A stretch of DNA of 64,000 bases from a phage: the sequence record OZ335964.1, one strand, 5' to 3'. The position numbers were made by a program, and so were the translations under genes. The notes below the pieces were generated by a model. The model was not told the DNA's origin, searched no databases, and was given only the letters and a program-made list of their open reading frames with translations. Position 1 is the stretch's first letter, and every line of letters starts with the position of its first letter. Positions 3,599-38,235 of the stretch are shown here, piece after piece.

Positions 3599-5068
3599 CT
3601 ATTCCCCATTACCATTATACTTTCTTTGCTTAGTTATCCACACTCTAACCATTTCTACTGATTCGCCGTCAGACGGATCAAGAGTTTTTCCTTTTTTCTT
3701 CATGCGGTACTTAAATCCGTTAAATCTTGCATTCTCTTGCTCGTTAAAGTCGAACATCTTTTTAAATGATTTTCGCCCTTTACGCTCACCACATTCTAGC
3801 GGAATCATTCGGTCTGTTATTACATTGGCATTAGGTAGAAACGTTTTTAGATAATCCACCAACGCCCAATCAGGAACATATAGATTAACATTCTCCTTGC
3901 TCTCGTTGTCTCTCAGGTTACAACGCAAACATAATTGAAATGCTGGTTCCAGATAATCAGACACATGACGCGCTTTCAAAAACTCGTTTGTCGGGAGATC
4001 ACAACTATTAGCAAGACCTTTTAAAATATCAATCTCCCATCGTTGAGGGTTAAAGCTGAACATCACAGCAACATTTTTATGATGAATGTAAGAGTTAAGA
4101 CCATAAGATCCGTAAGGTATCCGCTCACCAATACCATTTGTGCACGCTTCTCGGTCCCGATTCACGGTATAAATGAAGTCATCACCACATTCATTTTTAA
4201 CCATATCAACAAGACGTTCAAAGGTATTGTTTGTTTCTGACTGGTGACGCGACCATCGTTCAGAGTCCGTCATAAGGATGATGTTAACTCTATCTGTATT
4301 TTTATACTCTTTGAAATATAGTCTGGATTCTAGCGCACTCGGAACAAAATCGCAATTTGCATAGTATCGTAGATACTTCCCACTATATGTATCAAAGAGA
4401 TTTGCACATGCTATCGTAACCTTTTTAAAGTCTCCCCACGTACCGTGTTTGTTATCGTTCAAGAAAACAATTTTCGACCCATTCTTCCGGTGTCCTTCGT
4501 TATGTTTTACCATAACGTTGATTTTCTTCTCTAATAACGCCTCATAAAGCCCTCTAAGCGAAGAATCGATCATATCAGTACCATCCTTCGCACTTTCTAT
4601 CTTTTCTTTGATAGCGGACTTCTCAGAGTCTTTTAGAACTAAGTTCTGTAGGCATTCCGATTCGTCGGCGATTGGTTCGCAATGCTTCGTGATAAGTTCA
4701 AGATTAGACTTAAACGGATACTCATTAAATTCAACCAGTTGAGGAACTTCATCAATGTAAAGAGCATAATCACCAAACATTTTTGAACGTTCCATATTAG
4801 ATAACGCTGTATGTGTAATGAATATCACATCAGCACCGTCTTTAACTGATTGCATTATCGACGCTTGCACTGTCTTAAGGCTTCTTAGTCGTGTGCTATC
4901 AATCAAGACAGCACGACCGCCCATTCTTTTAAACTTATTGTAAGATTGTTCACTTAAAACACGAGATGGCGAAGCAATAACCGCTTTTTCTTTTGTCTCT
5001 AGGACGTGGGAAAGTATAGCATCAGTTTTCCCCGCCGCTGGCAATGCGATTAATGTTTCAATCTTCAT
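3599..5068 (-). CDS. P-loop NTPase of unknown function (Walker A ALPAAGKT, Walker B ALYIDE)
   Basis: 489 aa; Walker A/B motifs read directly; sits after gp55, next to the slot where T4 has a-gt; no family assignment possible without search. Confidence 0.6.
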   Translation of the reverse strand: MKIETLIALPAAGKTDAILSHVLETKEKAVIASPSRVLSEQSYNKFKRMGGRAVLIDSTRLRSLKTVQASIMQSVKDGADVIFITHTALSNMERSKMFGDYALYIDEVPQLVEFNEYPFKSNLELITKHCEPIADESECLQNLVLKDSEKSAIKEKIESAKDGTDMIDSSLRGLYEALLEKKINVMVKHNEGHRKNGSKIVFLNDNKHGTWGDFKKVTIACANLFDTYSGKYLRYYANCDFVPSALESRLYFKEYKNTDRVNIILMTDSERWSRHQSETNNTFERLVDMVKNECGDDFIYTVNRDREACTNGIGERIPYGSYGLNSYIHHKNVAVMFSFNPQRWEIDILKGLANSCDLPTNEFLKARHVSDYLEPAFQLCLRCNLRDNESKENVNLYVPDWALVDYLKTFLPNANVITDRMIPLECGERKGRKSFKKMFDFNEQENARFNGFKYRMKKKGKTLDPSDGESVEMVRVWITKQRKYNGNGE

Positions 5069-25238: not shown

Positions 25239-25637
25239 TTAAGCCAGTCGAGTGAGTTTATAAATTGTTTTAAAGCATAAAACTTTAATATCGTCTAAAA
25301 CGCTCTGCAAAGAGCTATCAACATCATTATAAATCTCACTAGCCATTTGCGTTAATTCCTGCAAATAGGCAATTTCGTTAATCTCCTTACGGACGACCAA
25401 CGTTGGTTGATACCGACCAGTGATCCCAATATTGGTTTCTGTGAAATTATCAACCAATTCTTGCATTTCAAGATAGAACTCTTCTAGAGCCTTATGTTTT
25501 GAATAAGACCCAGGTCCAGTTACCCCAAAATGCGCAGAATGCATATAAGTAACGCTCATTAGGCATTCACCAATAAAGCGGTCTACTTTATTAGCTTTTC
25601 CTCCCTCGGAAGTCTGCCTAAATTCACTGAATTTCAT
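25239..25637 (-). CDS. ferritin/Dps-like protein (putative)
   Basis: 133 aa; HSAHFGVTGPGSYSKHKALEEFY resembles the Dps HxxHW.V.GP.F..LH..FEE.Y helix motif; GGAGAA RBS. Confidence 0.4.
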   Translation of the reverse strand: MKFSEFRQTSEGGKANKVDRFIGECLMSVTYMHSAHFGVTGPGSYSKHKALEEFYLEMQELVDNFTETNIGITGRYQPTLVVRKEINEIAYLQELTQMASEIYNDVDSSLQSVLDDIKVLCFKTIYKLTRLA

Positions 25638-25923
25638 TATATCGATTCTCCATTTTATTAAGCACAATAAATTGATTTGCGGCATACTCTCCCATCATGA
25701 AACAATGTTTAGCATCCATACATTTACTACGTGCGTATGTTTTCATTATGTGGTCATGAAATTTTTGACTTGTCTCCACCGATGGTTGTATTTTGTTTAT
25801 ATACACGATCATAGCACCGTCGAAGTAATCAGTAAAGTCACCAACAGGACACTGATCGGCACTTACGCTACCAACTGCCATAACGCATATACCCGCAACG
25901 AGTGTTTTACGAATAAATGACAT
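25624..25923 (-). CDS. secreted small protein, RI-like (candidate lysis-inhibition antiholin)
   Basis: 99 aa; N-terminal signal-anchor; size, Cys pair and position next to tk as T4 rI; MKTYARSKC...C resembles T4 RI MRTTYKNDPC...C. Confidence 0.45.
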   Translation of the reverse strand: MSFIRKTLVAGICVMAVGSVSADQCPVGDFTDYFDGAMIVYINKIQPSVETSQKFHDHIMKTYARSKCMDAKHCFMMGEYAANQFIVLNKMENRYNEIQ

Positions 25924-25984: not shown

Positions 25985-26581
25985 TTAGTGGGTAGATCCA
26001 TCAATAAAATGTTTACGACAAACAGAAATATATTTATCTTCCGCACCAATTTCGATTTGAGCACCATCGCGAATAACATTACCATCTTTATCTACGCGAA
26101 GGACCATAGTTGCTTTCTTTCCACAATGACAAATACCCTTCATTTCGACCAGTTTATCAGCAAATGCCATCAATGCCGCAGATCCTTCAAATAGATTGCC
26201 CTGAAAGTCGGTGCGAAGGCCATAGCACAGTACAGGGATATTTGCATCATCAACAAGCGCACACAAGCCTAAAACATGCTCTTTAGTCATAAATTGGGCT
26301 TCATCTACAAATACAGCATCAGGACGCCATCGATCCGATCTACGCTTACCTAGTGATTCACGATAAACTAAGTCGAAAAGATCATCCGATTTAGTGAACG
26401 TAATAGCCGGAGCACTTAGACCAATTCGGGAAACAACTTCACTATCTGAATCACGATTATCAATCGCTGGTTTAAGAATTAATACTCGCATATCACGTTC
26501 GGTATAGTTATAAGCACTTTGTAACAGGGAAGTTGATTTGCCAGCGTTCATAGATGCATAGTAGAAATATAGTTGCGCCAT
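25985..26581 (-). CDS. tk: thymidine kinase
   Basis: 198 aa; MNAGKST P-loop, CHCGKKAT zinc site. Confidence 0.9.
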   Translation of the reverse strand: MAQLYFYYASMNAGKSTSLLQSAYNYTERDMRVLILKPAIDNRDSDSEVVSRIGLSAPAITFTKSDDLFDLVYRESLGKRRSDRWRPDAVFVDEAQFMTKEHVLGLCALVDDANIPVLCYGLRTDFQGNLFEGSAALMAFADKLVEMKGICHCGKKATMVLRVDKDGNVIRDGAQIEIGAEDKYISVCRKHFIDGSTH

Positions 26582-26874
26582 TAATTAATCTCCAAAAATC
26601 CAGCAAGACCTAAACCAACATAAACCCAGATGCAAAGGAAAAAGAAGCAAACACCCATAGCAAAGATAAATCCGCGTAGTGTCTTTGGATAACCTACCCA
26701 ATATTCCCGACCATCTTCTAACCGGATCAGTTTATTGCCTTGAGAGTCCATGTCAATCACAACATGCTTATTTCGAGATTGCAATAGATATTGTTTTACA
26801 ATCTCTACACCCGCCATAATAACAATAACGAAATTAAAAGTCCACATAACAAGGTTAATGATAGTCTCAAGCAT
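26581..26874 (-). CDS. small membrane protein
   Basis: 97 aa with two hydrophobic helices. Confidence 0.5.
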   Translation of the reverse strand: MLETIINLVMWTFNFVIVIMAGVEIVKQYLLQSRNKHVVIDMDSQGNKLIRLEDGREYWVGYPKTLRGFIFAMGVCFFFLCIWVYVGLGLAGFLEIN

Positions 26875-27736: not shown

Positions 27737-28096
27737 TTAGTCACGGGAAGACAACCCAGCCATAAAACGGCTTAAAAGCGTGTCACGATAAGCAAAGCAT
27801 AATTGCTTATCAGGGGCAGTATCACACAGGTTGCGTTTTGTTTTAGCAAAGCTGGCAATACTCAGATCCCACGCTCGATTTTTTCGTTTTTCATCTCGAC
27901 CTTGTTTGTATGCCTCGTCAAGTTCAAGTGCGATAAAATCGCTACACATGTTATCATCATCACAGAAGGTTTTAATGATCTTTTTGTTGATCTCAAATCC
28001 TTTGTATTCGACCTTTGGATAAGGGCGCTCATTACTAGCAAGCGCACCAGCCGAGAACATCATAGCAATCATAGCAATTATTGTCAACTTTTTCAT
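27737..28096 (-). CDS. secreted protein of unknown function
   Basis: 119 aa; signal peptide MKKLTIIAMIAMMFSAGALA. Confidence 0.5.
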   Translation of the reverse strand: MKKLTIIAMIAMMFSAGALASNERPYPKVEYKGFEINKKIIKTFCDDDNMCSDFIALELDEAYKQGRDEKRKNRAWDLSIASFAKTKRNLCDTAPDKQLCFAYRDTLLSRFMAGLSSRD

Positions 28097-28103
28097 ATAT
28101 TCC

Positions 28104-28694
28104 TCAATAGCGTTTAGTTTTAAGAATGCCTTTACTCTTTAGATGGTTAGCCTTTTTTAGTACGTCATCAGCATAACCCAATCCGGCTTTATAGTTCCAT
28201 CCAGCATTGTAAGAAGCTAGCGCGAGTCGGATATTACCGTTTCGAACATCCAGCCAGTATGCTAACTCATCCATCGCGTAGAATGCAGAAACCTCGCGAT
28301 TCATGATAAATTTGATAGTCTGGCGATCACTCATTTTAACACCGCGCTTTGCATTTTTCGCTTTCACCGTTTTAAGGTAATTTTGAAATAATCCATAAGC
28401 ATGATGATTTTTCTTTGGTGCTAAGTTTGCACCCGCGCTTGATTCTTGCCATGCTATACCCGCCAGGATGTGGCCTAAACCCTTTCCGTCATAGCGAATA
28501 TTCGGATGGTCATTTTTCAACTTACCGCTTTTCTCGAATTGTTCGCCATATTGATAGGCGAAATGTAAATTATCTAGTTGGTGTGCTGTAAAGTTGTCTA
28601 TCGGCGCTTTTTTGATCGGTGCGCTAGTCGATGCGTGTGTAGCACCAACGGCTAGTGACAGACTCAATACTATCGCTTTTAGAACTTTTAACAT
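28104..28694 (-). CDS. secreted lytic transglycosylase (SLT domain)
   Basis: 196 aa; signal peptide; SLT motifs GIAWQESS, AYGLFQ, ALASYNAG. Confidence 0.75.
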   Translation of the reverse strand: MLKVLKAIVLSLSLAVGATHASTSAPIKKAPIDNFTAHQLDNLHFAYQYGEQFEKSGKLKNDHPNIRYDGKGLGHILAGIAWQESSAGANLAPKKNHHAYGLFQNYLKTVKAKNAKRGVKMSDRQTIKFIMNREVSAFYAMDELAYWLDVRNGNIRLALASYNAGWNYKAGLGYADDVLKKANHLKSKGILKTKRY

Positions 28695-31883: not shown

Positions 31884-31945
31884 GGTAAAGTCTCCAGTGA
31901 ACGGGGAGAGATCCTTAGATTGTCTCCCCGTTGATGGTTAATATT

Positions 31946-32335
31946 TTATTTTGGATCTGGGTATTTGCTGTGTGGCAATTGTAGATGAGGACCATCTTTA
32001 AACGATACCCAATCCCCACCCCATTCAACAGGAACACCCAATTCTCGACCAGCTTGTTTAAATGCATCAGCGATCATGCGGTAATATTTCATGTTCCATG
32101 TATCCTTATCTTTCGGATACGCTACAACGTCAACCGCGAAACCGTGAAGATGACGAGATTTCATAGTCTTAGATTTACCTTCCGCAACATATTTCTTTTG
32201 CGTTTCTAGACTACGCACACCTTCCGTAATACCAAAATCGACCGGAGTCAGTTCTAATGCACGATGAACGACTTTTACCAGGTCTGGATGTACACCAACA
32301 AGCCGATCTTTGCTTCTTTGAGATAATTTAAACAT
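31946..32335 (-). CDS. peptidase M15 (LAS metallopeptidase, VanY-like) - probable endolysin
   Basis: 129 aa; SRHLHGFAVDV...DGPHLQL zinc ligands; occupies the position of T4 e. Confidence 0.7.
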   Translation of the reverse strand: MFKLSQRSKDRLVGVHPDLVKVVHRALELTPVDFGITEGVRSLETQKKYVAEGKSKTMKSRHLHGFAVDVVAYPKDKDTWNMKYYRMIADAFKQAGRELGVPVEWGGDWVSFKDGPHLQLPHSKYPDPK

Positions 32336-32363
32336 TATTCACCCCCTTTGTGAGTGATAATAT

Positions 32364-32555
32364 TTAGATTCCAGTGATCCTGCATAGAGTTCTTGTATTA
32401 GCACCAATCAGGATCGCATTAACGACAACCATTCCCCAATCAACCCACTGATTATTATAAATGCTAAACCCGTTTGCAAGACCAAATACAAGCATTCCGG
32501 TACACATACTCAGAGCAATAATCAACATCACGGTAAAACCAAATGCAAATCTCAT
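32364..32555 (-). CDS. small hydrophobic membrane protein
   Basis: 63 aa, hydrophobic throughout. Confidence 0.45.
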   Translation of the reverse strand: MRFAFGFTVMLIIALSMCTGMLVFGLANGFSIYNNQWVDWGMVVVNAILIGANTRTLCRITGI

Positions 32556-32556
32556 A

Positions 32557-32772
32557 TTATTTTCCTTTTCTCTGTTTACGTTTATAAAAGTAATACATTA
32601 CCTCATCGCGTCCGGTGATCCAACATGCTAGGGCGGTAAACAGGTTTACAATTCCCAACACACCTACGGATGCGGCGCTGTCAACAGACATAGGAACAGT
32701 AAAGGCCATAGCTAACATAGCAACGCCACAAATGACATTAAGCACCATTATAATAAGACCGAAGAAAACCAT
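32557..32772 (-). CDS. small hydrophobic membrane protein
   Basis: ATG at 32772 with GGGAGGA RBS. Confidence 0.45.
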   Translation of the reverse strand: MVFFGLIIMVLNVICGVAMLAMAFTVPMSVDSAASVGVLGIVNLFTALACWITGRDEVMYYFYKRKQRKGK

Positions 32773-32774
32773 TG

Positions 32775-32954
32775 TCAATCCTCCCAAATAAGAAAACCAA
32801 CAATCACGCCAGTGATAAGACATGATGCGCCGCTAATCAGACAACCCGCGCCAAGTGATTCCCACCAGATCAGAGAAGCGACAATAACGCAAATTCCCCA
32901 GACTACCGCAATCACAACATAGGCAATGGTCGCCAAAAACATATATTTGTTCAT
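32775..32954 (-). CDS. small hydrophobic membrane protein
   Basis: ATG at 32954 directly after upstream stop. Confidence 0.4.
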   Translation of the reverse strand: MNKYMFLATIAYVVIAVVWGICVIVASLIWWESLGAGCLISGASCLITGVIVGFLIWED

Positions 32955-33139
32955 AATAAATCCCATTCACCAAACAAATAAGAAAAAAGCCATATCAACA
33001 GAAACGAGGCAATTGATCCGGCAAGCAAAATGATATTAGAGAATCCACCGTTTATCCAGTTGACAAAACAGAATACGCCAGTATAGAAGCATAAACCCAT
33101 TACAAAGCATACTATAAGCAACCATAGATAAAACGCCAT
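32951..33139 (-). CDS. small hydrophobic membrane protein
   Basis: 62 aa; GGAGGG RBS. Confidence 0.45.
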   Translation of the reverse strand: MAFYLWLLIVCFVMGLCFYTGVFCFVNWINGGFSNIILLAGSIASFLLIWLFSYLFGEWDLL

Positions 33140-33200
33140 AGAAAGCCCTCCAGCGAGATAAATTAGTGCGGGTAGGGGAATGTACTACCCGCTTTGTTAA

Positions 33201-33359
33201 TCAACGCAGGGCTTGTTCTAGCGCGATCCCAAACCATCCACAAACAACGCCCATACAGACAGCTACAAGAAGATTCATTCTCTCTTTAGGGATCATTGCA
33301 ATCATAACAACAACCATACAGAAAGCCATTACCATTGAAGTTAACATTTGTTCAACCAT
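33201..33359 (-). CDS. small hydrophobic membrane protein (not in ORF track)
   Basis: 52 aa MVEQMLTSMVMAFCMVVVMIAMIPKE... with AAGGTG RBS. Confidence 0.4.
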   Translation of the reverse strand: MVEQMLTSMVMAFCMVVVMIAMIPKERMNLLVAVCMGVVCGWFGIALEQALR

Positions 33360-33361
33360 TA

Positions 33362-33694
33362 TCACACCTTTAAAGTCATAGACGCATAAACATTAACACC
33401 AGGCCAGTTAGGATCGCAATTATACTCAACATCCCACAAATAAAGCGGTTTAGATGTATCAGCCAAGTTTTTAAAATCTTCTACCCACATTTCAATGCTA
33501 TATGATGGATAAACTAGGCTGTCATATCCTCCGTAACGTTGGCCTACTGGTCGGTCAGTAAAAACTACCTCAAGATCCGGTAATTCTTTTTCAAGGATAA
33601 CCGCCAGCGCATAAATCAGACGGTCTTCCTTGTTACGCTGCCGAAGGACCGTTGTCAGTTGGCTTTTCTGGTTCACTAGCAAGCACCTCCACAT
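33362..33694 (-). CDS. hypothetical protein (start uncertain)
   Basis: ORF track 33362..33700 (GTG); overlaps upstream gene by about 60 nt. Confidence 0.35.
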   Translation of the reverse strand: MWRCLLVNQKSQLTTVLRQRNKEDRLIYALAVILEKELPDLEVVFTDRPVGQRYGGYDSLVYPSYSIEMWVEDFKNLADTSKPLYLWDVEYNCDPNWPGVNVYASMTLKV

Positions 33695-33953
33695 TTTCAC
33701 AGAATGAAATTTTCACAGACACAATTTTACCATAAGTGAAGAATGAATATACATTATCGAGATATTCAACGTCACCTACAATCACATCAAACTGCGGATC
33801 AGCAACCGCCGCAACATATTCTACCAGTTCATCAAGAGAATGCAACTTAATTTCATCAATTCGGCTGTATTTGGTTGCATCTTTGATTTTAAAACCACGT
33901 TCTTTCAGCTTATCAATTAGAATTTCACGCGGAGTTTCAAACAGTTTGCTCAT
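33633..33953 (-). CDS. hypothetical protein
   Basis: 106 aa; GAGGATTATACT leader. Confidence 0.5.
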   Translation of the reverse strand: MSKLFETPREILIDKLKERGFKIKDATKYSRIDEIKLHSLDELVEYVAAVADPQFDVIVGDVEYLDNVYSFFTYGKIVSVKISFCENVEVLASEPEKPTDNGPSAA

Positions 33954-33975
33954 AGTATAATCCTCACATAGTTAA

Positions 33976-34170
33976 TCAATGGTCAATAATCTTGCACATT
34001 ATAACAGAAAGAACAAAGACCGCAACCCACATATAGATCCCAGCAATCAATGCAATTTCAATATCACAATATCCAAGATATACAACAGGAATAAAAACAA
34101 ACATACAGACCAGCGCAAAGAAACTAGCAAAGGCGCTAGAAAATCCGATAGCAGTATTAGTAATATTCAT
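33976..34170 (-). CDS. small hydrophobic membrane protein
   Basis: 64 aa, two predicted TM helices. Confidence 0.45.
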   Translation of the reverse strand: MNITNTAIGFSSAFASFFALVCMFVFIPVVYLGYCDIEIALIAGIYMWVAVFVLSVIMCKIIDH

Positions 34171-34171
34171 A

Positions 34172-34354
34172 TTAACAATCCTCGCGGCTTAAGTCAACAG
34201 CAATTGCATACAGCATAATGAATATGCTAGCCGATCCGAGAATCAATACACCCTCACATTTTGAAACTCGCTCATCAAAATGTAACATTATCCAACCGAG
34301 GATGTTAAAGGCGCAGACCGCGCCTATGTTCGCTAACCAATTAATCTTTTTCAT
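34172..34354 (-). CDS. small hydrophobic membrane protein
   Basis: 60 aa. Confidence 0.45.
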   Translation of the reverse strand: MKKINWLANIGAVCAFNILGWIMLHFDERVSKCEGVLILGSASIFIMLYAIAVDLSREDC

Positions 34355-34362
34355 AATATACC

Positions 34363-34689
34363 TTAGAAAGAAACAGTTTTCAAGAAATCCAGATTTTTAG
34401 TACCGAAAACAGAAAAGTAGTGTTTTCCTTTTTCGGTTTTAGAGAAAGCGATTGTCTTCTCTACATGGTGACGGAAGCCAGACAGACGATCACCCAGGTC
34501 AAGGCGGCAAGCGTAAGTAGTGCCGTTTTCGAAAGTAACCTCGATTTGAGTTTTGTCATATTCGCTTTCATAGGCTTTTGCTGCCGCGTCCTGTGCTTTA
34601 CGCTCGAAGTCTTCGAAGTGGAATACTTCGTTTGCGTTAGCGAATACAGAAGATTCAGAGAAGATAACTTTAACAGATACTGGTTTCAT
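34363..34689 (-). CDS. hypothetical protein
   Basis: 108 aa; promoter-stem-loop upstream. Confidence 0.5.
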   Translation of the reverse strand: MKPVSVKVIFSESSVFANANEVFHFEDFERKAQDAAAKAYESEYDKTQIEVTFENGTTYACRLDLGDRLSGFRHHVEKTIAFSKTEKGKHYFSVFGTKNLDFLKTVSF

Positions 34690-34731
34690 TTTGATACTCC
34701 TTAGTAGTTCGTGTTTCGTTTCGATGGGTGT

Positions 34732-34760
34732 ATTATGCTATACACCCTCTCGCGTGTCAA
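34732..34760 (-). promoter_or_regulatory. sigma70-like early promoter with stem-loop (TTGACA-N17-CATAAT)
   Basis: minus strand; hairpin GGGTGTAT..ATACACCC; leader CATCGAAACGAAACACG. Confidence 0.5.
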
Positions 34761-34768
34761 CAACTTTT

Positions 34769-34957
34769 TTAGTCTTTTTTCATAATTTCTAGAGCAGTTT
34801 CTACAGCACCTTTCCAACCTTCCCACATAATGGACATAGTAAGGAAGTTAAAGCACCCGCAGGAATCAACCTTTTTAGAGATAAACCATTCTACAAACGC
34901 TTCGCTCATACCATGCTCTTTAGCGGATTCGCGTAATTGTTCAATTTGGTCTTCCAT
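34769..34957 (-). CDS. hypothetical protein
   Basis: 62 aa; GAGGTGATACT leader. Confidence 0.45.
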   Translation of the reverse strand: MEDQIEQLRESAKEHGMSEAFVEWFISKKVDSCGCFNFLTMSIMWEGWKGAVETALEIMKKD

Positions 34958-34979
34958 AGTATCACCTCAACACTTAACG

Positions 34980-35174
34980 TTATTCAAACTCAAACGGTCT
35001 ATTCAACCTATTGTAAAAGTACATATAACAAGCAAAATTATGCTTTGGCTGTACCGTATCAGATAGACACGCTTTTACAGCCTCGCGGTCCGATGGGTCT
35101 ACACCCTCAGCTTTAAGTAATGCTAAAATCTGGTTATAGCGTACTCTTAGTTGTACTAATGGTTTATCCCCCAT
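34980..35174 (-). CDS. hypothetical protein
   Basis: 64 aa; AAGGGGG RBS. Confidence 0.45.
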   Translation of the reverse strand: MGDKPLVQLRVRYNQILALLKAEGVDPSDREAVKACLSDTVQPKHNFACYMYFYNRLNRPFEFE

Positions 35175-35183
35175 ATTACCCCC

Positions 35184-35411
35184 TTATAGTTGATCAGCAA
35201 TGTATGCGGTGCATTTGCGGAGTTTAGCCATAGCACCACCTTTCATGTCGCTTGCGCCTACAATGTTCATGATCTCTAAGCGATCAGCCGGATTCAGTCT
35301 AGTAGCCCAGATCTGGTTAGCCAGTTCCATTTTACCCATCTGCGGTTCCATCTCAAACATTTCACGCTCAAAGTCGATAATTTCTTTTGCTGCGTCTTTA
35401 AAGTTAATCAT
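35184..35411 (-). CDS. hypothetical protein
   Basis: 75 aa; GGGAGGACCAAA leader; promoter-stem-loop upstream. Confidence 0.5.
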   Translation of the reverse strand: MINFKDAAKEIIDFEREMFEMEPQMGKMELANQIWATRLNPADRLEIMNIVGASDMKGGAMAKLRKCTAYIADQL

Positions 35412-35440
35412 TTTGGTCCTCCCGTTTCGTTGATGGTTGT

Positions 35441-35469
35441 ATTGTAGGGGAGTTATCCTCCCCTGTCAA
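35441..35469 (-). promoter_or_regulatory. sigma70-like early promoter with stem-loop (TTGACA-N17-TACAAT)
   Basis: minus strand; hairpin AGGGGAG..CTCCCCT in spacer. Confidence 0.5.
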
Positions 35470-35477
35470 CACTTTTA

Positions 35478-35663
35478 TCAGAAATATGCAATATAGTTTG
35501 CCAGTCCTACAGAGTCATCATTCGGCATTGCTTTTACCGCCAGTTCAAACCCTGCTTCAACTTTCTGTTTAGCGGATTCTTCGTTATAACCCCAGATGAC
35601 CAGAATAGCTACTACGTTTTCTTTGCTTACTGCTTTCAGTGCTTTAGTGATGCGACGTGCCAT
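35478..35663 (-). CDS. hypothetical protein
   Basis: 61 aa; GGAGAATCAAATT leader; promoter-stem-loop upstream. Confidence 0.45.
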   Translation of the reverse strand: MARRITKALKAVSKENVVAILVIWGYNEESAKQKVEAGFELAVKAMPNDDSVGLANYIAYF

Positions 35664-35709
35664 AATTTGATTCTCCGTTTAAGAAAGTGTGTTTCGTTTC
35701 GATGGGTGT

Positions 35710-35738
35710 ATTATGCTATAGGCGTGATCTGGTGTCAA
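35710..35738 (-). promoter_or_regulatory. sigma70-like early promoter (TTGACA-N17-CATAAT)
   Basis: minus strand; leader CATCGAAACGAAACACAC; directly after terminator 35765..35793. Confidence 0.5.
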
Positions 35739-35764
35739 CAACTTTTTTAAAAAATTTTAGGCAA

Positions 35765-35793
35765 TAAAAAAGCCACTCCGAAGAGTGGCTTAT
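35765..35793 (-). terminator. intrinsic terminator
   Basis: AGCCACUC-UUCG-GAGUGGCU hairpin + U6 on minus strand. Confidence 0.65.
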
Positions 35794-35935
35794 AGGGAAG
35801 GTAGCGAATCTTCCTTGTCTCCAACCTGCTAGCGGCCTAGCAAGTGAATGCTTTAGCGTACCGGATCACCCCATACGCTGCAATAAATGCGGCTAGGTGA
35901 CGTCCAAATCATTCTAACCGCGCTGTCTTTAGTTC
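35794..35935 (-). ncRNA. candidate small non-coding RNA or structured 3' UTR (between a late-promoter motif and an intrinsic terminator)
   Basis: about 140 nt with no ORF; TATAAATA on minus strand at 35948..35941; three stem-loops (GCGUA..UACGC, GCUAG..CUAGC, GGAAG..CUUCC) then terminator; T4 carries small RNAs (rnaC/rnaD) in the equivalent neighbourhood. Confidence 0.3.
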
Positions 35936-35939
35936 ACTA

Positions 35940-36158
35940 TTATTTATATCGCTTTCTCTCGCGACGTTTTTGATCTTCTTCCTTGATAGAGTTAAATGCA
36001 TCAAAAAGACACATGACACTGATAATGAACATAACCGTATTTTCTACGATATCCCACGGCTTCGCATCAGTACAGATCCCCCAAACGGTAAGAAATGCAA
36101 ATAGTGCAGAAGAGATCACAAGCATGATACTTGCTAAGATATAAAAAGTCATTTTCAT
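35940..36158 (-). CDS. small hydrophobic membrane protein
   Basis: 72 aa, TM helices, basic C-terminus. Confidence 0.45.
   Translation of the reverse strand: MKMTFYILASIMLVISSALFAFLTVWGICTDAKPWDIVENTVMFIISVMCLFDAFNSIKEEDQKRRERKRYK
35941..35948 (-). promoter_or_regulatory. T4-type late promoter motif TATAAATA on minus strand
   Basis: plus-strand TATTTATA; precedes the ORF-free 140 nt stretch ending at a terminator. Confidence 0.4.
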
Positions 36159-36337
36159 GGTTTTACCTCAATTCTTCGATATTCATCACACATCCACGCA
36201 GTAAGCAAGAATCCCAGCACATAAGCAACAAAATACGTTAATGCTTCTTCTGGTTCTGTGCTGTGTATCATCATTAAACCAGCTAGAACGGTCTTAACAA
36301 TTACATTTAAAATAATTAGCCACGCAAATAATTTCAT
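36155..36337 (-). CDS. small hydrophobic membrane protein
   Basis: ATG at 36337 in ATGA overlap with upstream gene. Confidence 0.45.
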   Translation of the reverse strand: MKLFAWLIILNVIVKTVLAGLMMIHSTEPEEALTYFVAYVLGFLLTAWMCDEYRRIEVKP

Positions 36338-36558
36338 CGTTTGCCCCATTTCGGTCGAGTCTTTTCAAACTTATACATTCCGTAACAATCTCGAATCATC
36401 CACGTAACAAGAGCACCAGTCAACACAGACAATACACAGAAGAAGTAAAACGGTCCGGTTGCATTATCAACATGAGCAAGCCAGGTAAAGAAAACACATG
36501 CTAAGAATGTGAAGAACATCATAAAACACAAGAAAGCAAAATATTTTATGCTACTCAT
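36334..36558 (-). CDS. small hydrophobic membrane protein
   Basis: ORF track starts with TTG; ATG at 36558 with GGTGG RBS. Confidence 0.45.
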   Translation of the reverse strand: MSSIKYFAFLCFMMFFTFLACVFFTWLAHVDNATGPFYFFCVLSVLTGALVTWMIRDCYGMYKFEKTRPKWGKR

Positions 36559-36661
36559 AGCGCCACCATACAACAGATCATAAGAAACCCCAACGCAATA
36601 AGAATTGCATCAAATTTAGTGAACTCAGGTCCACCTATCAACATCATTCGTTCCTGTTCAT

Positions 36662-36859
36662 TCATAGATCACAGAGCCATCTTAAAGCACCACATAAAGC
36701 GAGCAGAATACTAGGTATAAAAGAGACCAAAACAAGTTCGCAAAAATCATCTAAGGTAACACCGGAATAGCTACCTACTGTAACAACACCGATCATCAGA
36801 CACAGAAAGAAAACAAATGCAATCAGAAACAAAGTATTGCTAAACAGTTTAGTGATCAT
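36662..36859 (-). CDS. small hydrophobic membrane protein
   Basis: ATG at 36859 with GGGGTG RBS; longer track ORF would overlap upstream gene. Confidence 0.4.
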   Translation of the reverse strand: MITKLFSNTLFLIAFVFFLCLMIGVVTVGSYSGVTLDDFCELVLVSFIPSILLALCGALRWLCDL

Positions 36860-37052
36860 TAGACACCCCACGACGATCAATTTCAAAAACTTTTTTATCA
36901 TCAACGAAGCATGTCACAACTGCCTCGTTGACTTCCGCAAATTGTTGTGTTACCCACTTAAGGTCAGATCGAAACAATGTTTTGTTAATAACAAATGTTT
37001 TACCGCTCTTATCCTTACCCATAAATTTTGCTTTAACCATATCCAATTCCAT
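36849..37052 (-). CDS. hypothetical protein
   Basis: 67 aa soluble; AAGGTGATAAT leader. Confidence 0.45.
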   Translation of the reverse strand: MELDMVKAKFMGKDKSGKTFVINKTLFRSDLKWVTQQFAEVNEAVVTCFVDDKKVFEIDRRGVSNDH

Positions 37053-37061
37053 ATTATCACC

Positions 37062-37220
37062 TTATTTGCTAATCGCTAAACCCAATCCGAAGAGAGCACC
37101 CGATGCTACAGTATACCCGAAAGTTTCAAATGCAGTAAAGATATCTAAGCCACCAGCTAACAGAGTTGCAGTAAACAGAGTACCAGCTACGAACATAAAA
37201 GTTTTACCGATAAATTTCAT
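37062..37220 (-). CDS. small hydrophobic membrane protein (not in ORF track)
   Basis: 52 aa MKFIGKTFMFVAGTLFTATLLAGG...; GGAGAATCAAAATG leader; promoter-stem-loop upstream. Confidence 0.4.
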   Translation of the reverse strand: MKFIGKTFMFVAGTLFTATLLAGGLDIFTAFETFGYTVASGALFGLGLAISK

Positions 37221-37251
37221 TTTGATTCTCCTTTCGTTTGTTTGTGGGGGT

Positions 37252-37280
37252 ATCTTACTACCCCCGTTTCATGTTGTCAA
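37252..37280 (-). promoter_or_regulatory. sigma70-like early promoter with stem-loop (TTGACA-N17-TAAGAT)
   Basis: minus strand; hairpin GGGGGTA..TACCCCC. Confidence 0.45.
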
Positions 37281-37286
37281 CTGTTT

Positions 37287-37661
37287 TTAAGAAAATTTTA
37301 CTTCGTCTACAATGTCTTTCATGACATTGATTTCCATTCCGGTCAGAACACGTTGGAACATGTGCTGCACATACGCTTTCAGATATTCATTTGATGGCTT
37401 GCTATCAAAAGTCTTTTTAGTATAGTAGTCATCACCGAAAGCTACTGTAATTACATTTTCGTCGTCGTTCCAAGCGATATAAGCAAATTTGCCGTTATCC
37501 CAGAAGCGAGCACTAATTGCTACTTTTGTTGAATCGAATCCTACTTCGCTGTGAGATTCAAGAACTACTTGCGTGCCAGTTTCTTTATGAATGTAGTAGC
37601 GGGATACTAAGTCAAAGTTACGAGTGTAGTGACATTCGAATTTATCTTTAAACATCATCAT
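37287..37661 (-). CDS. hypothetical protein
   Basis: ORF track 37287..37730 overlaps promoter; ATG run at 37661 after GGAGAATCAAAA leader. Confidence 0.5.
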   Translation of the reverse strand: MMMFKDKFECHYTRNFDLVSRYYIHKETGTQVVLESHSEVGFDSTKVAISARFWDNGKFAYIAWNDDENVITVAFGDDYYTKKTFDSKPSNEYLKAYVQHMFQRVLTGMEINVMKDIVDEVKFS

Positions 37662-37770: not shown

Positions 37771-38235
37771 TTACAGTTTGGTCGTCCACTCCAGGTCTAG
37801 ATCTTCGACATACTCATGAGATCGGACAATCTCTAAATCGAACTCTAGGTCAGTGCCAAATTTACGCGCACCAACATCATAAGAAAGCGTGATATGCGGT
37901 ACATATTCAGGATAATCCCACGTCGCGCCTAAAGCAGTTCCGATATCGTGTCTGAATTGCATGTAGTCGCTTTCAAATGCCAGCACAAGTGCATTAGTAC
38001 CGGATTGAGTTTCAAACACTTTCAGATGACACAGAGAGCCTAAGAACTTTTCCCCTTCTTCTGGGATAAACGGAACATAGACACGAGAATATAAGATAGT
38101 GCTATGAAGTTTATCACGAGGAACGGCATTAGGCAGATCGTAGAACTCCTGCAATTTTTCAATGCGGTCTAGTGTATCCTCAGTGAATTTAACCGCCGCA
38201 TATGTACCTTTAACGGATTCTCGAAACGGGGTCAT
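37771..38235 (-). CDS. 57B: 2H-phosphoesterase-fold protein, Acb1 (gene 57B)-like cyclic-oligonucleotide phosphodiesterase
   Basis: two H-x-T/S motifs (KLHSTIL, VPHITLS); position immediately before 57A and gp1 as T4 57B; ATG at 38235 after GGAGG. Confidence 0.65.
   Translation of the reverse strand: MTPFRESVKGTYAAVKFTEDTLDRIEKLQEFYDLPNAVPRDKLHSTILYSRVYVPFIPEEGEKFLGSLCHLKVFETQSGTNALVLAFESDYMQFRHDIGTALGATWDYPEYVPHITLSYDVGARKFGTDLEFDLEIVRSHEYVEDLDLEWTTKL

Follow-up and report, generated by a model that had tools for sequence, protein, structure and literature searches.

A cluster of thirteen orphan genes for small hydrophobic proteins in a hyperplastic region of a Krischvirus phage

Two transmembrane (TM) segments followed by a highly charged C-terminal tail make up the classical holin signature, and bacterial mini-proteins of the MgrB, AcrZ and SgrT type, as well as type I toxins, have 30–75 amino acids (aa) and one or two TM helices, and bind larger membrane proteins or oligomerise. 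T4-type phages carry more than 100 orphan genes, the roles of which are largely unknown, and the orphan genes of T4 hyperplastic regions are generally non-essential fitness genes (PMC4396842). One T4 envelope protein, Spackle (Sp, gene 61.3), has a cleavable signal peptide and a ~75-aa periplasmic globular domain that inhibits the gp5 lysozyme (PMC7677548). In RB49 and phi1, promoter and terminator activity has been demonstrated experimentally for early promoter/stem-loop (PeSL) cassettes other than those considered here (PMC2839356). We analysed a stretch of 64,000 nucleotides (nt) of phage DNA (record OZ335964.1, hereafter the window), in which thirteen genes, called h1 to h13, encode small hydrophobic proteins between positions 32364 and 37220.

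The window comes from an RB49-like T4-type coliphage of the genus Krischvirus (RB49/Phi1/JSE type). Positions 32000–37400 were matched by 59 phage records at 94–98.5% nt identity, all of them Krischvirus (RB49, Phi1, JSE, GEC-3S, W115 and others). Base composition and GC skew indicated minus-strand genes up to ~43 kb, and a tRNA gene scan of the window found none. The region is a known hyperplastic region rich in PeSL cassettes, bounded by vs.8 and the endolysin gene on one side and by 57B, 57A and gene 1 on the other. In the deposited relatives its genes are labelled "hypothetical protein", W115 alone calling eleven of them "putative membrane protein", so that they are already annotated yet uncharacterised.

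Thirteen constrained genes for hydrophobic mini-proteins

The thirteen h genes are real genes under purifying selection, and their products are hydrophobic, hairpin-shaped orphans restricted to one genus. On balance we lean, by a modest preference, towards reading them as thirteen separate accessory mini-proteins of the inner membrane, made early and serving exclusion, envelope takeover or counter-defence, and not as a lysis cassette.

Open reading frames (ORFs) were taken from a six-frame list and their starts refined by means of annotated relatives and Shine-Dalgarno positions, several of the longest-ORF starts lying too far upstream. A preliminary description of this DNA had counted about 12 such genes. 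They are present where it placed them, but they number 13, arranged as five, two and six: in the last group (35940–37220), where it saw five, the 36-aa h11 had been overlooked. That group had also been taken for a tandem run of hydrophobic genes, which it is not, the soluble gene dmd lying between h13 and h12. The assignment of one or two TM segments to each protein agreed with Kyte-Doolittle profiles, which gave two in 10 of the 13 and one clear segment in h1, h11 and h13. The same description had put the genes downstream of the endolysin gene; because all 13 are on the minus strand, they are upstream of it in the order of transcription. The ratios of nonsynonymous to synonymous polymorphism (pN/pS) listed below come from a comparison of 18 loci, nine from GenBank Krischviruses and nine from metagenomes, of more divergent lineages, the latter reached via h2 relatives (80–92% identity) in contigs of up to 175 kb. 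The genes are as follows.

31946–32335, minus strand: endolysin gene, Peptidase_M15_4, 129 aa, soluble, without TM segment
32364–32555, minus strand: h1, 63 aa, one strong TM segment and a weaker hydrophobic C-terminal half; PHROG 15016, function unknown; pN/pS 0.20 (14 unique alleles)
32557–32772, minus strand: h2, 71 aa, two-segment hairpin with basic C-terminal tail KRKQRKGK, predicted N-in/C-in; PHROG 15232; pN/pS 0.25
32775–32954, minus strand: h3, 59 aa, two TM segments, nearly uncharged; PHROG 16151; pN/pS 0.27
32951–33139, minus strand: h4, 62 aa, two TM segments, without basic residues; PHROG 19354; pN/pS 0.31
33201–33359, minus strand: h5, 52 aa, two TM segments, basic loop PKERMN; PHROG 16035; pN/pS 0.34
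33976–34170, minus strand: h6, 64 aa, two TM segments; one of two alleles
34172–34354, minus strand: h7, 60 aa, two TM segments, N-terminal KK; PHROG 16425; pN/pS 0.33
35940–36158, minus strand: h8, 72 aa, two TM segments, acidic loop, very basic tail KRRERKRYK; PHROG 15168; pN/pS 0.19
36155–36337, minus strand: h9, 60 aa, two TM segments, acidic loop, ATGA overlaps at both ends; PHROG 15717; pN/pS 0.21
36334–36558, minus strand: h10, 74 aa, two TM segments, basic tail KTRPKWGKR; PHROG 15290; pN/pS 0.13
36555–36665, minus strand: h11, 36 aa, acidic N-terminal half, then a C-terminal TM segment (tail-anchored); PHROG 15282
36662–36859, minus strand: h12, 65 aa, two TM segments; PHROG 17225; pN/pS 0.55; 69–97% identity across lineages
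36849–37052, minus strand: dmd, soluble antitoxin gene between h13 and h12; Pfam Dmd, 58 bits
37062–37220, minus strand: h13, 52 aa, rich in Gly, Ala and Thr, with a clear hydrophobic segment and a weak one; PHROG 16462; pN/pS 0.47

No part outside the membrane exceeds ~19 aa in any of the 13 proteins, if the C-terminal halves of h1 and h13, which are weakly hydrophobic, are left aside. In h2, h8, h9, h10 and h12, basic tails and acidic loops placed by the Kyte-Doolittle segments are consistent with an N-in/C-in topology, and the basic connecting loop of h5 suggests N-out/C-out. The tails of h2, h8 and h10 hold 7–8 Lys/Arg within 14–19 residues; the other ten ORFs lack such a tail. An AlphaFold2 model of h2 was a helical hairpin (helices 2–25 and 30–69) with a mean predicted local distance difference test (pLDDT) score of 79.6.

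Every gene has a Shine-Dalgarno sequence or a coupled start. ATGA overlaps join h12 through h8, and the start of h3 to the stop of h4; the rest have Shine-Dalgarno sequences, and the start of h12 overlaps the end of dmd by 11 nt. The hydrophobic ORFs were open wherever the locus was covered, except for a frameshift in h4 of phage ECD7 and for deletions in two metagenome contigs described below. Over the 18 loci, pooled pN/pS was 0.13–0.63 for the h genes as compared with 0.24 for the endolysin gene and 0.29 for dmd. Against a divergent metagenome lineage (L012), the corresponding substitution ratio dN/dS was 0.11–0.62 at dS of 0.14–0.99, and the TM segments persisted at 67–92% aa identity; h11, which is annotated in JSE and RB49, had dN/dS 0.16 at dS 0.65, and h5 kept its TM segments at 67% aa identity in this and two further lineages (L012–L014). 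The coding strand is T-rich, with 46% T at codon position 2, and the T excess is confined to that position, as expected under selection for hydrophobic residues. Together, intact frames in nearly all loci and the ratios above also disposed of the possibility, raised in the preliminary description, that hydrophobicity was a frame or antisense artefact. The aa divergence of the h genes is above that of their soluble neighbours (median pN ~0.06 vs ~0.014).

Membrane mini-proteins are concentrated here: they account for 13 of ~21 genes, as compared with ~6 of 85 crude ORF calls elsewhere in the window (Fisher p ~2e-7). In another hyperplastic region of RB49 (t to rIIB), small TM ORFs were 1 of 19 small genes.

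Each protein is its own orphan family, found in Krischvirus-like phages only. Each ORF matched only its own small PHROG of unknown function; scans against Pfam, PHROGs and PADLOC returned these orphan PHROGs and nothing above any cut-off, nor any similarity to toxin families. In tblastn against 50,697 phage records, h2 and h8 were each found in 59 of 59 Krischvirus and nowhere else. A word-indexed search of 5.8 billion proteins with h1 and h2 returned Krischvirus-like relatives only, at 80% identity or more; the homologues of h1 were confined to Krischvirus-like contigs (at least 86% identity), and the relatives of h2, down to 80% identity, lay in metagenome contigs of 170–175 kb. With h8, phmmer against 1.84 billion representatives gave a single cluster. 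Sequence searches of the PDB with h2 and h10 found no relative, and an IMG/VR scan with an h10 alignment gave only two near-identical loci and was uninformative. All-versus-all blastp and hhalign revealed no paralogy among the 13 ORFs, the exception being the allelic pair of h6 and the RB49 gene RB49p110.

Transcription signals, deletions and exchanged alleles

The promoters upstream of the h genes are of the sigma-70 type; the following signals were identified in and around the cluster.

37727–37699, minus strand: near-consensus sigma-70 promoter upstream of gene n_124
37252–37280, minus strand: predicted PeSL-type early promoter, TTGACA-17-TAAGAT, whose hexamers flank a G/C stem-loop, upstream of h13
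35770–35791, minus strand: intrinsic terminator with 9-bp stem, UUCG loop and T-run
35738–35710, minus strand: near-consensus sigma-70 promoter upstream of gene n_61
35469–35441, minus strand: near-consensus sigma-70 promoter upstream of gene n_75
34732–34760, minus strand: predicted PeSL-type early promoter, TTGACA-17-CATAAT, upstream of an LPD25 gene (n_108), h7, h6, two soluble genes and h5
33168–33192, minus strand: G+C-rich hairpin between h5 and h4, GCGGGTAG...CTACCCGC, lacking a T-run

Five PeSL-like sites share the motif GTTGACA-N17-(C/T)ATAAT followed by CATCGAAACGAAAC; stem-loops lie inside the h13 and n_75 promoter sites and just upstream of the n_124 and n_61 sites. The sites ahead of h13 and n_108 are annotated as promoters in GEC-3S, and the terminator is annotated in GEC-3S and in Makalu phages. 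From these motifs, two early transcription units can be deduced. The first, served by the 37252–37280 promoter, would run h13-dmd-h12-h11-h10-h9-h8, with h13 as its first gene, dmd next and h8 as its last; the terminator closes it, together with a candidate small RNA (see below). The second would run n_108-h7-h6-n_106-n_104-h5-(hairpin)-h4-h3-h2-h1-endolysin: no T-run terminator was found between the 34732–34760 promoter and the endolysin gene, and the transcript probably reads on through h4–h1 and the endolysin gene, the 33168–33192 hairpin being possibly an attenuator. An exact match to the T4 late-promoter motif TATAAATA was found ahead of neither h cluster; the sole one in 31–38.7 kb is at the stop codon of h8. 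A near match (7/8), TCTAAATA, follows the h genes, in the gap that separates h1 from the endolysin gene.

Two other signals were seen near the endolysin gene. The Shine-Dalgarno sequence of the latter, AAGGGGGTGA, is half-buried in a 6-bp hairpin, TCACTC-N7-GGGTGA (32336–32366, minus strand), which is invariant in 7 relatives. Because TCTAAATA is directly upstream, a late transcript would begin within the 5' arm of this hairpin, an arrangement that resembles the early-block/late-translation control of T4 gene e. At 32750–32778 (minus strand) there is an 11/12 sigma-70 match, TTGACA-17-TATTAT, with its -35 hexamer abutting the h2 start codon and its -10 hexamer inside h2. This match may be due to chance, or h1 and the endolysin gene may have an internal promoter here.

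The region varies by deletion and by exchange of alleles.

L024:3935–4219 and L025:1395–1679 (about window 32650–34354): h7::h2 fusion variants
Window 33976–34170, and 4249–4643 of the RB49 locus (L006): h6 cassette

A natural deletion of ~2 kb was seen in two metagenome contigs that are independent of each other, L024 (165 kb) and L025 (166.5 kb). It takes h6, n_106, n_104, h5, h4 and h3 whole, together with the 3' end of h7 and the 5' end of h2, and leaves an in-frame fusion, h7(1–54)::h2(31–71), joined at a shared "VD" codon pair. Since this circulating deletion removes them, h3 to h6 are dispensable. At the h6 cassette, the window, JSE and phiS carry h6, and RB49, GEC-3S, W115 and ECD7 carry RB49p110 plus an extra two-segment gene, RB49p111; h6 and RB49p110 are 34% identical (hhalign probability 97.4%), and the flanks of the cassette are 97–99% identical. 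Mosaic alleles of h8, h13 and n_75 occur among otherwise close genomes: h8 is 67% identical in L012 and L013 versus 99% in L014, and n_75 (35184–35411, minus strand) is either 95–100% or 71–75% identical. This pattern is consistent with shuffling or recombination mediated by PeSL sites. Thus, the region shows the features of PeSL orphan genes, namely a sigma-70 promoter with a stem-loop, a variable setting, and polymorphism by insertion, deletion and replacement.

Further mobile or transferred sequence was seen at two places. In the gap between the endolysin gene and vs.8 (~31884–31945), JSE, phiS and several metagenome relatives have a ~576-nt HNH/AP2 homing-endonuclease gene that is absent from the window, and in the genomes that bear it (L003, L008, L021, L024 and L025) the endolysin gene itself diverges at its 3' end. 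At 35478–35663 (minus strand), a 61-aa soluble gene of family DUF7421 (136 bits) has 74–79% nt identity with many T1-like siphophages, its matches being Drexlerviridae that include tonnikala, Henu8 and SH6, which points to horizontal transfer between unrelated coliphage families; its protein is 98–100% conserved throughout the Krischvirus lineages (pN/pS 0.01).

The 276 nt of "intergenic" sequence that follow h8 hold a candidate late-expressed small RNA, for which the evidence is suggestive, not conclusive. The segment of ~170 nt (35765–35948, minus strand) would extend from the TATAAATA motif at 35948–35941, which overlaps the h8 stop codon, to the terminator at 35791–35770. It is 97.8–99.5% identical in 59 of 59 Krischviruses, with only 4–8 differing positions in lineages where h8 dS is ~1, and it folds better than shuffled controls (z = -4.05). 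The consensus fold has 56 pairs, of which four vary without loss of canonical pairing, one of them through G-C, G-U and A-U, and 11 variable columns are unpaired; the UUCG tetraloop of the terminator is GAAA in one lineage. A 1-nt indel breaks its only small ORF, and hence the segment is non-coding. Rfam gave sub-threshold chance hits only, and no similarity to T4 rnaC or rnaD was found.

Elsewhere in the window, three minus-strand genes encode other proteins with TM segments or signal peptides.

26581–26874, minus strand: 97-aa protein with TM segments at its N- and C-terminus, adjoining tk
27737–28096, minus strand: 119-aa protein with a signal peptide
28104–28694, minus strand: 196-aa protein with a signal peptide and an SLT lytic transglycosylase domain (25.9 bits)

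Possible functions of the mini-proteins

We infer that the h proteins are made early, reside in the inner membrane with the topologies given above, and have the kind of function outlined here. With 36–74 aa and almost nothing outside the bilayer, they would insert in the host inner membrane, mostly as two-helix hairpins. Host sigma-70 RNA polymerase would transcribe their genes early from PeSL cassettes, as two packed operons with partial translational coupling, and the proteins would then act within the membrane, either on host membrane proteins to which they bind or as oligomers. They may serve to alter the cell envelope soon after infection, the candidate roles being to exclude the DNA of superinfecting phages in the manner of Imm, to protect against abortive-infection effectors that act on the membrane, and to tune host transport or division. 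By analogy, exclusion or a host-directed membrane function appears the most plausible. The neighbours of the h genes include dmd, in a shared operon, and, at a distance of ~0.5 kb, the following gene.

37771–38235, minus strand: 57B, homologue of the anti-CBASS (cyclic oligonucleotide-based antiphage signalling system) nuclease Acb1, PF23474, 174 bits; "RNA ligase" in several records

The preliminary description had thought of proteins of the Imm/Sp type. As an analogy this stands, given the size, the two TM segments and the predicted early promoters; as homology it does not, since the comparison with Imm gave blastp E >2 and hhalign probabilities of at most 1.3%. The comparison with T4 imm, sp and rI that it proposed showed the 13 ORFs to have no sequence relationship to Imm or Sp and no match to RI. 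No Pfam hit to Imm_superinfect was obtained among them at E <=0.1, and T4 Imm, Sp, 61.1, 61.2, 61.4 and imm.1 had no similarity to any. Homologues of Imm are present in 989 phage records. When T4 Imm and Sp were used as tblastn queries, neither the window nor the 12–30 kb and 146–164 kb segments of RB49 gave a homologue, and no imm is annotated at the syntenic uvsX-43 site of RB49.

Several points weigh against early accessory proteins of this kind. The searches of Pfam, PHROGs and PADLOC and the comparison with T4 proteins linked none of the h proteins by homology to an exclusion or anti-defence protein that has been characterised. The negative screen for Imm and Sp applies to roughly two thirds of the Krischvirus genome, RB49 0–12 kb and 86–146 kb lying outside it. 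The evidence for early timing consists of promoter motifs. A literature search returned no functional, transcriptomic, proteomic or ribosome-profiling data on these genes, and a search on Krischvirus membrane proteins found no functional data either. Besides the presence of h2 and h8 in all 59 Krischvirus records, the other h genes are present in nearly all 18 loci, and near-universal conservation of this sort fits genes that do housekeeping work during infection better than it fits arms-race genes. Finally, h2, h8 and h10, with two TM segments and a charged C-terminal tail, have a generic class II holin signature, and h1–h5 are directly upstream of the endolysin gene, which leaves a small probability of a role in lysis.

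As it stands, the finding is an ordinary one, the genes being already public in 59 genomes as hypothetical or putative membrane proteins. What it adds is that one 5-kb, putatively early region holds 13 unrelated, genus-conserved membrane mini-proteins beside the counter-defence genes dmd and acb1. This provides a short, delimited list of candidates for new superinfection-exclusion or membrane anti-defence functions, in a genus used in phage therapy (Phi1, JSE). There is a small chance that the locus represents something new in kind: either a novel membrane device in the Dmd operon, replacing Imm/Sp or countering abortive infection, through single proteins or an h12–h8 complex, or the repeated de novo birth of TM genes in a T-rich hyperplastic region, fixed later by selection.

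A first alternative, which we consider unlikely, is that the h proteins are host-shutoff toxins that arrest the cell early, either by depolarising or disturbing the inner membrane or by blocking division or transport. Their size and hydrophobicity are like those of type I toxins and of phage Kil-type peptides, and the promoters ahead of them are predicted to be early. Several T4 orphan genes are toxic on ectopic expression (PMC4396842). Yet the membrane must stay energised during most of a T4-type infection, a set of thirteen different toxins would be redundant, and none of the three database scans detected similarity to a toxin family. This alternative overlaps with the exclusion and envelope-takeover reading and is not cleanly separable from it.

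Ranking after toxins, and improbable too, is that the products of the coupled h12-h11-h10-h9-h8 genes, and perhaps of h13, assemble into a single hetero-oligomeric complex in the membrane, such as a channel, a repair machine or an exclusion machine. The four consecutive ATGA overlaps from h12 through h8 are typical of stoichiometric co-production, h8–h12 and h13 are kept in every lineage covering them, including the deletion variant L024, and the five proteins are non-redundant because their sequences are unrelated. However, overlapping starts are common across T4-type early regions and are no proof of a complex, and the uneven divergence within one genome pair (in L012, 67% for h8 and 92% for h10), together with the mosaic h8 alleles, argues against tight co-evolution of h8–h12.

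The preliminary description had also offered holin, antiholin or spanin. Of the 13 proteins, h2, h8 and h10 do look holin-like, but family match, lipobox and periplasmic domain are all missing, and lysis, an unlikely function, is the least supported of the three readings it proposed. That some h genes (h1–h5, or h2, h8 and h10) provide an extra holin or pinholin, an antiholin or a modulator of lysis timing for the M15 endolysin is, in our estimate, quite improbable. In its favour, h1–h5 have the same orientation as the endolysin gene and adjoin it, the h1 stop being 28 nt upstream of the endolysin start; this M15 endolysin, which took the place of T4 lysozyme in Krischvirus, is soluble and needs a holin; and Pfam holin families gave sub-threshold scores of 13–15 bits. 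None of these families was reached, however, the best scores (Phage_holin_3_5 14.8, holin_3_6 14.1 and holin_5_2 13.6 bits) being far under the cut-offs of 27–29 bits. On inspection, none of the 13 ORFs had a long periplasmic domain or a Cys after an L-(A/S)-(G/A) lipobox as in spanins, and none matched the RI family PF24205. Moreover, the lysis genes are elsewhere. RB49 has a T4-type holin t of 218 aa (RB49 154972–155628, after the tail-fibre genes), and the window itself encodes an antiholin.

25624–25923, minus strand: RI antiholin, PF24205, 73.6 bits, adjoining tk

RB49, Phi1 and JSE are listed as members of the T4 PseT.3/PseT.2 spanin families (PMC6139136), and a recent Krischvirus genome paper lists a holin, two spanins and an endolysin elsewhere (PMC11767321), so that lysis is already covered. 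The promoters upstream of the h genes are of the early type only, with no TATAAATA, h3–h6 are missing in circulating relatives, and no cluster of this kind lies upstream of the M15 endolysin gene of Slopekvirus Miro, a relative of the one here. Adjacency to the endolysin gene alone is thus no ground for annotating these genes as holins or spanins.

Lastly, that the ORFs are nonfunctional, as a T-rich by-product, an antisense or frame artefact or young proto-genes drifting neutrally, is hardly credible: the T-rich coding strand, the confinement of all 13 orphans to one genus and the proposal that hyperplastic regions are sites of de novo gene birth (PMC4396842) speak for it and make a de novo origin possible, but frames open in up to 18 loci, the low pN/pS, dN/dS of at most 0.62 even at dS ~1, Shine-Dalgarno or coupled starts for all, and a T bias limited to codon position 2 largely refute it, the genes being constrained now.

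Comparison with described systems

The PeSL cassettes described by Arbiol et al. 2010 and Comeau et al. 2014 come from the same phage group (RB49/phi1), have a sigma-70 promoter and a stem-loop upstream, lie between conserved modules, and show allele swaps and deletions among close relatives, as is the case here. They differ in that those papers treat the mechanism of shuffling and not these genes, and in that most h genes are near-universal rather than presence/absence polymorphisms. The searched text of the two papers has no mention of a dominance of membrane proteins in the region, "membrane" referring to filters only.

Features of class II holins or pinholins, for example S68 of phage 21, and of the T4 T/RI pair are seen in h2, h8 and h10, which are small, with two TM segments and a charged tail, and in h1–h5, which adjoin the endolysin gene. 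On the other hand, the h proteins match no such family, their promoters are of the early type, the phage has T and RI, and some h genes are deleted in relatives. As compared with the bacterial small inner-membrane regulators of the MgrB, AcrZ and SgrT type and with type I toxins, the h proteins have no homology and are phage-encoded.

In T4, the gene for Spackle, an envelope protein made early, lies downstream of dmd at a distance of two genes, and here small, putative envelope proteins flank dmd; in contrast to Sp, the 13 ORFs have no predicted periplasmic globular domain, and they have no similarity to it. T4 Imm (83 aa) likewise has no sequence similarity to the h proteins, and these have no Pfam hit to its family, so that an exclusion role for them would be one by analogy only. 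The likeness to Imm is one of form and setting: a small early protein of the inner membrane with two TM segments and little else, non-essential, and encoded in a variable early region.

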